The notes beneath the pieces are model-generated. The model had not been told where the DNA came from. It searched no databases and worked only from the letters and a program-made list of their open reading frames with translations. The position numbers were made by a program, and so were the translations under genes. A DNA stretch of 61,728 bases, the filler included, from Deltaproteobacteria bacterium (GTDB taxonomy: Bacteria; JAUYMQ01), in NCBI GenBank assembly GCA_030698575.1. It is 12 parts of 12 records of this genome, joined end to end, with 100 filler letters (N's around TTAATTAATTAA, not from the genome) between each part and the next. Parts side by side here need not be neighbours in the genome. Positions count along the whole stretch, not along the records: positions 55,671 to 58,415 come from JAUYMQ010000154.1; 11 more parts are not named here. The stretch is one strand, 5' to 3'. This document shows positions 55,671-58,415 of this stretch, in pieces. Every line of letters starts with the position of its first letter. Positions within the stretch are counted from its first letter, which is position 1.

Positions 55671-55790
55671 GCGGAAGAAGCTGACGGCATCCAACGGGGC
55701 GGTGATCGGCGGGCTATAGGCTGGGCGGCCCTCGCGGACCAGCTTGACGTGGTAGAAGGCGTGCTTGTCCGGGTTGCACACGGCAGCCAT
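55671..55790 (-). CDS. RadC-like (JAB) protein, N-terminal fragment
   Basis: YHVKLVRE...ITAPLDAVSFFR matches the start of mobile-element RadC proteins; GAAAGG RBS; catalytic part is off the contig. Confidence 0.6.
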
Positions 55791-55895
55791 CCTTTCTGCA
55801 GGGGTTGTGAAGGAGCGGGGTGCTCCTTCCACCGTAGCAGGGACGGATGGCGGGTGGGAACGTCCGGGTAGGTAACTTCGCCCTGGGGCCCCGGG

Positions 55896-55933
55896 GTTGT
55901 CTTTGCACGACAACGTTGTTATATTTCGACAAC
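55896..55933. promoter_or_regulatory. two abutting palindromic operator-like sites GTTGTY-N7-GACAAC
   Basis: GTTGTC-TTTGCAC-GACAAC (55896-55914) and GTTGTT-ATATTTC-GACAAC (55915-55933). Confidence 0.7.
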
Positions 55934-56028
55934 AAGCCCGGGAAACCGGGACTTCTTAGCGAAAGGAGGCTATAGTCGACCCCGGATTCACACAGCGTAG
56001 AACCCCAACTGCGCAGGAGAGAGGACAC

Positions 56029-56400
56029 ATGGCCGGCACATCGTTTGGAGAGTTCATCAAGGAGCTCCGCCGACGACAGGGATACTCGCTCCGAGCCTTC
56101 TGTGAACTACATGAGCTTGACCCCGGTAACCAGAGCAAGATGGAACGAGGACTGCGACCGCCACCTCTGGGAGAGCGGCAGCGCGAGGAACTCGCGCGCT
56201 GGCTGGGCCTAAAGCCGGGTGACGATGACTGGCAGGTCTTCTTTGACCTTGCCGACATCGCAAGCGGCCGGATCCCATCCGAGATCCTCGAAGACGAGGC
56301 CCTCGTGGGTAAGTTGCCGCTAGTCTTCCGTAGTCTGCGTGGTGAGAAGCTGAACAAGGACCAGCTGCTGGAAGTCGCAGAGCTGCTCCGGAGGAGTTGA
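56029..56400 (+). CDS. XRE-family HTH transcriptional regulator
   Basis: FGEFIKELR..G.SLRAF....DPGNQSKMERG..PP; AGGA RBS. Confidence 0.9.
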   Translation: MAGTSFGEFIKELRRRQGYSLRAFCELHELDPGNQSKMERGLRPPPLGERQREELARWLGLKPGDDDWQVFFDLADIASGRIPSEILEDEALVGKLPLVFRSLRGEKLNKDQLLEVAELLRRS

Positions 56401-56407
56401 ACCCAGC

Positions 56408-57028
56408 ATGTTCCAGATCAGGTTCCGCCCGAGCGATGCAATCGAGGAAGCCGCAGACGACGCGCGCCGGCGGTACGGAGCGACAGACATTCCGGTGGAC
56501 GTCGATGCGGTCCTGGACGTGAAGCTCGGGATGAACCTGGTCCCGGTCCCTGGCCTTCAACAACGCATCAATGGCGACGCGTTCACGTCGCGCGATTGGA
56601 GCGAGGTCTACTACGACCAGAACCAGTCGGCAACACGACTCCGCTTCTCGCTCGCCCACGAACTCGGCCACTTCGAGCTGCACCGGGCAGAGATCGATGC
56701 CCTGCCGGCAACGACCACGATCGAGGAGTGGGCGCAGTTATACGAGGACCTGCCGGAGGATGCCCTGGGCCGGGCGGAAGTGCAGGCAAATATGTTCGCC
56801 GCGGCACTCCTCATGCCCCGCGATGAACTCACGGCGCGCTTCACGCAGGCGCTCGCAGGAGCCGAGGATCTTCGTCGCGTCGCAGTCCAGCAGGGACTGA
56901 CACGCAATGACTACCTCGAATACGTGGTCCAGTACGTGGCCACTGGCCTGGCAAAACAATTCGATGTCTCTGTGGAGGCAATGGGCTGGCGGATCAGGAA
57001 CCTGAGCCTCGCGAGTATGGTGCCGTGA
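56408..57028 (+). CDS. ImmA/IrrE-family (COG2856) zinc metallopeptidase
   Basis: IPVD, RLRFSLAHELGH (HExxH), EVQANMFAAALLMP and LA..F.VS. Confidence 0.92.
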   Translation: MFQIRFRPSDAIEEAADDARRRYGATDIPVDVDAVLDVKLGMNLVPVPGLQQRINGDAFTSRDWSEVYYDQNQSATRLRFSLAHELGHFELHRAEIDALPATTTIEEWAQLYEDLPEDALGRAEVQANMFAAALLMPRDELTARFTQALAGAEDLRRVAVQQGLTRNDYLEYVVQYVATGLAKQFDVSVEAMGWRIRNLSLASMVP

Positions 57029-57072
57029 GGCGGGACACGGTCGCCGGACGGCTGAGAAAAGGATATGGAAAG

Positions 57073-57975
57073 ATGGCGCGCTACTCAGTATCACAGCTTC
57101 GCAGCAAACTGCAACAGGCCCAGCAGAAGCAGCGACAGGCGGTCAACCGCTACAATCAGGCAGCTCGTCGCTACAACCAGGGGCTGAGACAACTTAAGAC
57201 CGAGGTGGATCGGTACAACCGCCAAGTGGATGCCCACAACGCACGGGTTCGCGCGAACCGTCAGCGTCTGCGCCGCGAGCTGGCCCGCCTGAGCCGCCAG
57301 CCGACAACCACGACGGTGACAACGACGTTCACCGTTTACCGCACCTCCGTGCGGACCCTGAACGAGTCATACCAGCATCTGGATCGCCGCGCGGAGAGCC
57401 AACAGTTGCACCCATACTACAACCGGGTACTTGACCTTTCGGAACGAGAGACGGCGAATAGCGTGGCGGTTACGAATCGCCTCCTCGGTGTTGAGGAAGA
57501 CGCGGAGGAACAGGGCGACACGCTCGAGGACGCGGAGCTGCTCGACCGGCTACAGCGCGTATCGCCGGATCTGGATAAGCGCTGGAGGGGTGCTGTCTAT
57601 GCTCTGAACGAGAGCAACCCGGACGCCGCCCGTCATTTCTGCGCGAGTGCGCGCGAGATCTACACGCAGATCCTCGAGCTCAAGGCGCCGGACGCCGAAG
57701 TTGCCCGGGTGCTCCCGAATTGCGACAGAACGAGCCAGGGCAAGCCCACACGACGGGCGAAGATCCGCTTCTTCCTTCACCGCAACGGCATGACGGAAGA
57801 GACCTTGGAGGAATTCGTCGAGCACGACATGGAGAACATCCTCAACCTCTTCCAAGTCCTGAACGACGGCACCCACGGGTCAGCCGGCACTTATGGACTG
57901 TCCCAGCTCGCGGCCATCCGGAAGCGGGTTGAGGATGGCATCACATTTCTCACTGAGATCGCCGCCGCCGCATAG
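57073..57975 (+). CDS. coiled-coil protein with putative nuclease domain (resembles predicted pPIWI-associating nuclease; HEPN-like)
   Basis: Q/N/R-rich N-terminal helix; C-terminal NPDAARH..S.RE, L..AP, PTRR and N.GTHG. Alternative GTG start at 57025 overlaps the peptidase stop. Confidence 0.6.
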   Translation: MARYSVSQLRSKLQQAQQKQRQAVNRYNQAARRYNQGLRQLKTEVDRYNRQVDAHNARVRANRQRLRRELARLSRQPTTTTVTTTFTVYRTSVRTLNESYQHLDRRAESQQLHPYYNRVLDLSERETANSVAVTNRLLGVEEDAEEQGDTLEDAELLDRLQRVSPDLDKRWRGAVYALNESNPDAARHFCASAREIYTQILELKAPDAEVARVLPNCDRTSQGKPTRRAKIRFFLHRNGMTEETLEEFVEHDMENILNLFQVLNDGTHGSAGTYGLSQLAAIRKRVEDGITFLTEIAAAA

Positions 57976-57983
57976 GCAGGCAA

Positions 57984-58415
57984 ATGCTAACACCCAGAAT
58001 CGACAGGGGAGAGATCGGGCAGTGTAACATCTGCCAGTCCCAGCGTTGTGATCTCTCCTGGGAGCACGTTCCGCCGCAGGGGTCGGTCTTCCTCTCTCGG
58101 GTGGACATCCGACTCTTATTCCAAAGAGCAGTCGGGAAGGAAGGCGACGTCTGCATTTCTCAGAACGGCGTTAAGTTCCGGACGGTTTGCAGAGGTTGTA
58201 ATTCCAGCATCGGACGGTATGATCGTGCGCTGATCGAATTCACGCAGGATGTACGGCGATTTGTCGAGACGGATCTGGCCGTACCCCCAGTGGTCAAGAT
58301 CACCACCCGCCCGACAGCCCTGGCAAGAGCTGTTATTGGACATTTGCTCGCCGCGAAGATCACGGCTGACGAGTCAGTGTTCGACGATAAGCTCCGTCGC
58401 TGTGTCTTGGACGCA
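57984..58415 (+). CDS. HNH-type zinc-binding endonuclease-like protein (3' partial)
   Basis: CxxC...EHVPP...CxxCN pattern. Confidence 0.7.

Follow-up and report, generated by a model that had tools for sequence, protein, structure and literature searches.

A putative autoregulated XRE-M78 peptidase cassette ahead of two unrelated cargo genes on a deltaproteobacterial contig

The stretch of DNA analyzed here (61.7 kb in all, hereafter called the window) comes from the genome assembly GCA_030698575.1 of a Deltaproteobacteria bacterium, and one of its contigs carries an XRE-family helix-turn-helix (HTH) gene, an M78 (ImmA/IrrE) peptidase gene, and two further genes, referred to as gene 3 and gene 4, in a row on one strand. 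We give about an even chance to the view that this locus captures part of a variable island, probably a mobile one, in which an autoregulated ImmR/ImmA-type switch heads an operon with two unrelated cargo genes. As a class, it is best placed with derepression cassettes of the ImmR/ImmA or Rosmer kind, as a short, co-directional form that lacks a GAF domain and carries idiosyncratic cargo. The four-gene order does not recur elsewhere; rather than a conserved system of four genes, the locus seems to be a singular combination of parts whose kinds are each known. An initial annotation of this DNA, which proposed an inducible defense or toxin operon, is therefore partly supported.

Gene order and control region of the locus

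The locus makes up one whole contig (C226, 2,745 bp; window positions 55671-58415). The source assembly comprises 653 contigs and 4.13 Mb, is 91.6% complete, and is 4.6% contaminated. Since the window consists of 12 contig pieces joined by 11 N44-TTAATTAATTAA-N44 spacer pairs, gene neighborhood across the spacers carries no meaning. Within the contig, four plus-strand open reading frames (ORFs) fill the sequence: the XRE-family HTH protein (56029-56400, 123 amino acids [aa]), the M78 zinc metallopeptidase with its HELGH motif (56408-57028, 206 aa), gene 3 (57073-57975, 300 aa), with a C-terminal domain of Pfam family PF18165 (pP_pnuc_1), and the first 144 codons of gene 4 (57984-58415), which encode an HNH-like zinc finger and run off the contig end. 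The intergenic gaps are 7, 44, and 8 nucleotides (nt), and the co-directional, closely spaced, truncated operon is as first annotated. On the minus strand, divergent from the operon and likewise truncated by the contig end, lies the 40-codon 5' fragment of a RadC-like JAB-domain gene (55671-55790). Judged by sequence, each gene is a confident member of its family, with the exception of the HNH call for gene 4, which is based on conserved residues; the adjacency of the four families has been seen only once.

New in this analysis is a pair of abutting exact palindromes that overlaps a sigma-70-like promoter before the XRE gene. The two 19-bp copies of GTTGT-N9-ACAAC (55896-55914 and 55915-55933) form a candidate operator pair at 55896-55933 and cover both hexamers of the sequence TTGTCT-17-TATATT (55897-55925, plus strand), a consensus match with a TG extension before the -10 element that agrees with 9 of 12 consensus positions and lies 104 nt 5' of the XRE start. 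A consensus scan of the contig found 2 sigma-70-like sites against 0.5 expected, and between the gene starts the only promoter- or terminator-like sites were those inside gene 4, with none in the intergenic gaps. Allowing at most one mismatch, 0.41 palindrome matches are expected in the window and none of 100 shuffles reached three, the number found; the third match (57405-57423, one mismatch) lies inside gene 3 and may be due to chance. In the whole 4.13-Mb assembly the motif occurs at three places, two of which are the abutting pair, and a reversed control pattern also occurs at three. The third place, on contig C63, was considered as an operator and dismissed, as it lies in an ordinary region. 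The pair over the promoter resembles the operator pair of an autoregulated repressor and would fit an autorepressed operon, as well as the inducible control that had been proposed for these genes.

From this arrangement we infer the following course of regulation. The XRE protein would bind the two palindromes and, as these cover the -35 and -10 elements of its own promoter, would keep the presumably cotranscribed operon low, and maybe the divergent RadC-like side too. When stress or an invader is signaled, the peptidase would cleave the XRE protein, and the operon would be derepressed. The cargo so released would be a helical PF18165 protein and a zinc finger HNH-type nuclease with a novel C-terminal domain, each of which presumably acts alone as a nucleic-acid-directed defense or exclusion effector; enzymatic activity of either is a presumption of this scheme.

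The XRE protein and the M78 peptidase

The XRE protein matches Pfam HTH_31 (E value, 2.7e-6; 28 bits against a cut-off of 27) with its HTH at residues 6-64 and a tail of some 55 aa after it. The protein reaches the PADLOC capH profile at an E value of 0.034 only, and a designed repeat protein was its sole solved match at an E value of ≤0.1. We presume this protein to be both the repressor and the substrate of the protease. The peptidase matches Pfam Peptidase_M78 (E value, 2.4e-17), with no other Pfam family listed for it, and these two Pfam matches bear out the pairing of an XRE with an ImmA/IrrE protein made in the initial annotation. Eight relatives of the peptidase are 198-208 aa long and 35-79% identical to it; residues H84, E85, H88, and E124 are invariant in all nine family members, and none of the nine sequences has a cysteine between H88 and E124.

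Among defense-system profiles, the peptidase matches PADLOC capP (E value, 5.6e-23; profile positions 5-136 of 242) and 14 RmrA profiles (best E value, 1.6e-14), the latter in their peptidase part only (e.g., positions 138-298 of 380). The NCBIfam model "spr1629 family repressor/antitoxin" is matched with an E value of 1.7e-8 and 34 bits, far under its cut-off of 335. The only solved relative is CapP (7T5T; E value, 7.7e-8), with query residues 60-146 aligned to chain residues 74-153 of 291, a range that includes HExxH and the E-Q-A-(N/D) third-ligand block. Past the end of this alignment 60 query residues remain, enough for a short helical tail and too few for a GAF domain; the domain layout is the peptidase-only one of ImmA. 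On mobile DNA, the peptidase matches the phage families phrog_2439 and phrog_87, while viral contigs gave two short N-terminal matches only and plasmids gave no match at 1e-8.

Structure prediction of the XRE protein with the peptidase as a complex scored 0.54, the best of three controls reaching 0.18. At least 95% of contacts are common to the runs, and the pLDDT (predicted local distance difference test) of the partner is at least 83. Of 78 solved complexes and 108 mismatched pairs, 51 and 2, respectively, passed the mark for such predictions; at scores of ≤0.60, only 5 of the 78 solved complexes did so, along with all 4 passing mismatches of 180. The prediction lends the pairing weak support.

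In the ICEBs1 element, immA follows immR and is cotranscribed with it, divergently from the genes that the pair regulates. The window locus likewise has an HTH repressor gene and then a short, peptidase-only M78 protease gene in one operon, with a divergent gene sharing the control region. Where the two differ is downstream: no integrase follows the window peptidase, and two defense-island genes stand there instead. ImmA cleaves ImmR, which permits expression of the element's genes (PMC10440598). More generally, HTH and ImmA-type protease modules are described as controlling or neutralizing varied defense cargo, as with CapH/CapP (bioRxiv 10.1101/2022.04.27.489752) and Rosmer (PMC10440598).

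CapH/CapP, known from CBASS, DISARM, and other immune operons, is the nearest of these by sequence and also places an HTH and M78 pair beside defense-type genes. The available description of CapP assigns residues 1-141 to the peptidase, 142-182 to the HTH, and 182-288 to the GAF domain; in CapP/IrrE, single-stranded DNA (ssDNA) binds between the peptidase and GAF domains, the GAF domain forming half of the groove, and a cysteine switch is found in many, not all, CapP members (bioRxiv 10.64898/2026.05.16.725639). The window peptidase has the HExxH motif and third-ligand Glu of CapP but neither its GAF domain nor its cysteine switch, and it is 206 aa long against 288-291 aa. All described CapH/CapP regulators lie upstream of their cargo operon and on the opposite strand (bioRxiv 10.1101/2022.04.27.489752). 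The analogy with CapH/CapP drawn at first thus breaks down at two points, the missing GAF domain and the co-directional order.

Gene 3, a helical PF18165 protein

The start of gene 3 was placed at the ATG at 57073, which fits the N terminus MAR(R/K)YS of its homologues; a GTG at 57025 is also open. Residues 161-293 match pP_pnuc_1 with an E value of 7e-43 and 145.9 bits (cut-off, 26.3). The motifs that the initial annotation quoted for genes 3 and 4 are all present in the translations, in gene 3 as NPDAARHFCASARE, PTRR, and NDGTHG and in gene 4 as CNIC...EHVPP...CRGCN. Among 7,248 candidates, 1,616 relatives of gene 3 were found at an E value of ≤0.001. Of the best 120 listed, the 119 other than gene 3 itself are 283-319 aa long and show 58-69% identity, and all carry PF18165; named sources among the best relatives are Planctomycetota, Cyanobacteria, and Marinimicrobia. 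In an alignment of 35 sequences the mean column identity is 76%, and NPDAARHF, S-x-RE, TRR, and N-x-x-THG are invariant in the C-terminal domain.

The AlphaFold2 model of gene 3 (pLDDT, 77) is all alpha, with a long N-terminal helix, a helical bundle, and then the C-terminal domain. The long helix (residues 6-75; window positions 57088-57300) bears Arg, Asn, and Tyr residues that are near invariant across phyla, with (R/K)YNQ occurring three times. For one helix, conservation of this degree suggests recognition of a specific ligand, possibly nucleic acid, more than it does coiled-coil packing.

For the gene 3 model, Foldseek found no solved relative in the PDB at an E value of ≤0.001, and a profile search with gene 3 against PDB sequences gave two chance coiled-coil matches only. 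VIA-align placed residues ~150-300 on 1jog, 1wwp, 1wvt, 6y2r, and 4qik at Z scores of 6.5-7.0, which is the noise range for helical models; these entries we take to be HEPN folds. Structure rows of the Atlas for gene 3 include HEPN_Apea clusters at template modeling (TM) scores of 0.47 and 0.39. The C-terminal domain thus may have a HEPN-like fold, although the canonical Rx4-6H motif is absent, the conserved NDGTH lacking its Arg. "Putative nuclease," the name under which gene 3 had been annotated, corresponds to no more than a predicted label in Pfam, and the Pfam name may mislead. A literature search for "pPIWI-associating nuclease" and "PF18165" found nothing, and the accessible part of a 2013 Biology Direct article (PMC3702460) holds no description of the PF18165 domain.

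The name refers to the nucleases associated with long-B prokaryotic Argonautes (pAgo), the bAgaN of BPAN systems, which are covered by the PADLOC model Aga_Nuclease and combine pP_pnuc_1 with pP_pnuc_2. Gene 3 shares the PF18165 domain with them and matches Aga_Nuclease with an E value of 1.2e-11 over positions 17-144 of 267. Proteins of the bAgaN type have two domains, whereas gene 3 stops at position 144-148 of the 267-position profile, at the expected start of the second domain, and so lacks the second half of the pAgo-associated proteins. The two-domain form is seen in an Atlas cluster of 277 aa, in which 100% of members have PF18165 and 98% have PF18166. Across 401 genomes, all eight PF18165 genes match only positions ~7-159 of the 267-position Aga_Nuclease profile; PF18166 was found in none of the 401, the window's own genome included, in a search that had no positive control. 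The Piwi domain (PF02171) gave no match in the 91.6%-complete assembly, in a search whose controls responded in 2 of 14 cases, and none was found near six other PF18165 genes. In two studies of the E. coli protein EcbAgaN, the DNase is the C-terminal PD-(D/E)XK domain (PMC13535254), and the helical N-terminal domain docks on pAgo, regulates the nuclease, and is not toxic alone (PMC13535254, PMC10620215). That N-terminal domain would correspond to PF18165.

Gene 4, an HNH-like protein with a novel C-terminal domain

Gene 4 matches Pfam HNH_5 with an E value of 0.069 and 13.5 bits (cut-off, 27.5). Its family numbers 558 cluster representatives at an E value of ≤0.001 and 244 at 1e-10, with a full length of about 270 aa; most of the best 150 relatives are ~250-300 aa long, and the closest, P0122, is 58% identical and 263 aa long. 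In 80 aligned sequences C14, C17, H27, P30, G61, C68, C71, D80, and H120 are invariant, and D26 and N72 are conserved in at least 90%, the window protein having EH at the former position. By its sequence, the pattern CxxC...(D/E)H...CxxCN of the family is a zinc finger HNH signature, likewise found in the HNH (beta-beta-alpha-Me) endonucleases McrA, Hpy99I, and Gme HNH. Compared with these, gene 4 has a novel C-terminal domain, and a counterpart of their final metal-binding His/Asn was not identified in it. HNH_5 is listed in 9 of 11 relatives scanned, above its cut-off in 1 of the 11, and Endonuclease_7 in 4 of 11, all under the cut-off. A twelfth scanned protein, P0199 (1,593 aa), was set aside as an unrelated repeat protein.

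We modeled P0122 with AlphaFold2 (pLDDT, 95.7; predicted TM score, 0.93). Foldseek found no match to this model in the PDB at an E value of ≤0.001, and its best VIA-align Z score was 3.6; the HNH rows (4h9d, 3fc3, 6ghc, 8yb6, and 9nvu) are weak, at Z scores of 2.6-2.7 and 17-33% identity. The C-terminal domain (~170 aa) lies mostly past the contig end in the window, and in the P0122 model it is matched by nothing solved. A profile search of gene 4 against PDB sequences gave no matches, and no PADLOC model matches gene 4 or its family. The family does match phrog_21495, a phage family of unknown function, at 5e-15.

P0122 also has plasmid matches, in 64 records, of which 46 are typed conjugative. 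Those numbered H9 to H30 are partial (72% cover, 28.9% identity), come from plasmids of Escherichia, Klebsiella, Shigella, and Enterobacter, where the annotation reads "hypothetical protein" or "chaperonin."

The cargo families in other genomes and on mobile DNA

The neighborhoods of gene 3 relatives were surveyed at 82 nonself loci, namely, the 80 best of 297 confirmed metagenomic loci, a single genome contig, and one further genome locus. They represent 71 distinct gene 3 segments; 71 of the loci extend 600 bp or more upstream, and 66 do so downstream. By tblastn at 1e-3, relatives of the RadC fragment were found in none of the 82. In 400 other genomes, PF18165 occurs in 7 and the gene 4 family in 7, with no genome shared. 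The recurring four-gene system that was envisaged at first is contradicted by these counts, the four-gene order being found at 0 of 82 loci and the two cargo families never sharing a genome among the 400.

A Pfam scan covered the 113 distinct proteins directly adjoining gene 3 relatives (+1/-1) at 81 loci. The adjoining proteins include DNA methylases and Mrr, XhoI, and Eco57I-type enzymes; AAA_13, HerA, HEPN RiboL-PSP, FRG, caspase, PIN_12, SLATT_5, and DUF499 proteins; and resolvases, integrases, transposases, and many proteins without a family. Cleavable-repressor types adjoin gene 3 relatives at three loci, namely, LexA-like S24 proteins (L029 and L030) and an HTH-M78 fusion (L023), and a plain HTH_3 protein does so at L019. 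Further PF18165 contexts comprise MvaI/BcnI, a type I specificity subunit, DUF2290 with UvrD, a TIR_2 operon, and a type I restriction-modification (R-M) island. On plasmids, gene 3 relatives are found after an Eco57I/PaeR7I R-M pair, next to VapC, and close to RES, ABC-3C, and patatin genes. Relatives of gene 4 are solitary on all four plasmids inspected; elsewhere they stand beside AAA_21 and MNT modules and near an MmeI-like enzyme. Genes 3 and 4 are therefore, outside the window, solitary residents of R-M, toxin-antitoxin, or plasmid hot spots. The defense or mobile character first ascribed to the cargo is confirmed by these relatives among R-M, toxin-antitoxin, TIR, AAA_13, resolvase, and plasmid genes.

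Several of these neighborhoods deserve mention in their own right. A large AAA_13 ATPase directly adjoins gene 3 relatives in three independent contexts (L027, L038/L039, and the plasmid NZ_CP010698.1, L111), in two of which an R-M pair lies on the other side of the gene 3 relative. At L099 (G181:C84, 3645-10307), a PF18165 gene (266 aa) is part of a type I R-M island that also includes two MNT/HEPN pairs and, on the same strand and three genes away, an HTH_3-M78 fusion of 380 aa. At L100 (G258:C73, 5963-8383), genes for a TIR_2 protein (293 aa), a 205-aa protein without a family, and a PF18165 protein (281 aa) are co-directional with short gaps, and this trio may be a different PF18165-containing operon. 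At L125 (G187:C1, 2473-10702), hsdR and hsdS-hsdM enclose the genes for a gene 4 relative (307 aa) and a 453-aa protein without a family, and all of these share a strand. Such positions are also where anticodon nucleases and other accessory defense genes occur.

Weighing of the proposed switch against other explanations

Several observations weigh against an ImmR/ImmA-type switch heading an operon of two cargo genes. Relatives of the window XRE protein, peptidase, and gene 4 are found in none of the 82 nonself gene 3 loci (tblastn, 1e-3), and most relatives of gene 3 and of gene 4 have no adjoining XRE/M78-type regulator, so this control is dispensable to the cargo. Unlike CapH/CapP, the pair runs in the direction of its cargo, and the gene on the opposite strand is instead RadC-like. 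The peptidase also lacks the GAF domain and with it half of the ssDNA groove of CapP/IrrE. Promoter and operator are pattern matches only, and the whole locus is a 2.7-kb contig truncated at both ends, from an assembly of 653. The link of the RadC-like side to the operon, across a branch at 55884-55888, may also belong to a minority variant only.

This last point comes from sequencing runs. Three DNA runs from two studies contain parts of the stretch, and no run on record as RNA does. Contigs of runs X1 and X2 match the window up to 55888 and 55884, respectively, and then diverge. The summed contig depth in X1 is 44 over 55671-55762 and ~4-5 over the four genes, a change of about tenfold, and the RadC-like side seems common to several genomic contexts in that community. 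The branch point lies immediately ahead of the operator pair, as would suit a variable cargo region beside a commoner backbone, and explains the contig break. A Logan contig of X1 spans 57179-58415 without difference and so joins genes 3 and 4, and other contigs cover the joint between XRE and peptidase genes; positions 56775-56866 are without contig cover in X1. Run X1 may be the sample behind the window assembly, so its support for the gene joins is not independent.

The strongest of the alternatives, which we nonetheless consider unlikely, is an element or prophage immunity switch like ICEBs1 ImmR/ImmA, in which the derepressed operon would be the divergent RadC-like one and genes 3 and 4 would be passengers of the quiescent state, not induced effectors. 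Exclusion genes do ride with phage repressors. The short, GAF-less, peptidase-only protein, the place of its gene after the repressor gene in the same operon (as immA after immR), and the palindromes in an intergenic region common to both sides all suit such a switch, as do the phage families matched by the peptidase and by the gene 4 family. The G+C content of the locus, 0.55-0.62 against 0.62-0.69 on neighboring contigs, also points this way. The divergent fragment itself has no Pfam match over its 40 codons, but it is 78-83% identical to the N termini of three proteins (146-149 aa) with PF04002, a RadC-like JAB domain, so the RadC-like identity given in the initial annotation holds by proxy. 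Short RadC-like JAB genes are common on mobile DNA, being found in 188 plasmid records and accounting for 95 of 101 candidate stretches in viral contigs. A layout of RadC, XRE, and ImmA is, on the other hand, not conserved, since only 1 of 80 viral RadC-like loci has an ImmA-like stretch, ~3 kb off and on the other strand. The palindromes moreover lie over the plus-strand promoter of the XRE operon, and genes 3 and 4 should accordingly rise as well when the XRE protein is cleaved. The contig, which is too short to tell, has no integrase, excisionase, replication, or structural gene.

Next, and unlikely as well, comes a Rosmer-like toxin-antitoxin system with a split RmrA, in which the XRE protein and the peptidase would together be the antitoxin; gene 3, gene 4, or both would be the RmrT toxin, and control would operate at the protein level too. 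Rosmer (RmrTA) is the nearest named defense system with an HTH and an ImmA protease, and it went unmentioned in the initial annotation. Its antitoxin RmrA, an HTH and ImmA protease, has many unrelated toxins as partners, some of them of nuclease type, in a gene order that varies (PMC10440598). The window resembles it in having an ImmA-type protease with an HTH beside highly variable effectors and in the match of the peptidase to 14 RmrA profiles, to which the spr1629 repressor/antitoxin match, far under its cut-off, may be added. HTH-M78 fusions also lie beside or near PF18165 genes, at L023 and L099. RmrA as described is, however, one fused protein, whereas the window has separate HTH and protease genes and two candidate effectors instead of one. 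Neither gene 3 nor the gene 4 family matches a PADLOC RmrT model, RmrT families being diverse, and relatives of both genes are mostly without an antitoxin-like neighbor, which makes constitutive toxicity unlikely. The operator pair, finally, points to transcriptional control.

An improbable explanation is that the genes are juxtaposed without a functional link, in a hot spot of independent single-gene modules or by an assembly join, genes 3 and 4 having their own signals. The lack of recurrence of the order and the autonomy of both cargo families in other genomes fit this view, as does the branching of the contigs of two runs, with its change in depth of about tenfold, in a highly fragmented and partly contaminated assembly. 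Against it, the short intergenic gaps leave little room for separate promoters, none of which was found there, and genes 3 and 4 are joined in the X1 contig, as are the XRE and peptidase genes in others, with the dependence of X1 noted above. Highly improbable is a two-part effector of genes 3 and 4 on the logic of bAgaN but without an Argonaute, with PF18165 as a noncatalytic switch gating the HNH protein of gene 4 in trans and the XRE/M78 pair as the trigger; if this were true, PF18165 would be a portable module for gating nucleases and not itself a nuclease.

Implications

Cassettes of an HTH protein and an ImmA-type protease are emerging as general switches for bacterial immune genes. The locus described here would add a short, GAF-less, co-directional form of this cassette, fronting two experimentally unstudied families; it is itself no evidence for a new multigene system. 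The family of gene 3 is large, unusually conserved, and spread over several phyla in a defense-island setting, and that of gene 4 joins an HNH finger to a confidently modeled domain without a solved counterpart. Either cargo family may be a cheap single-gene candidate for phage-defense screens.

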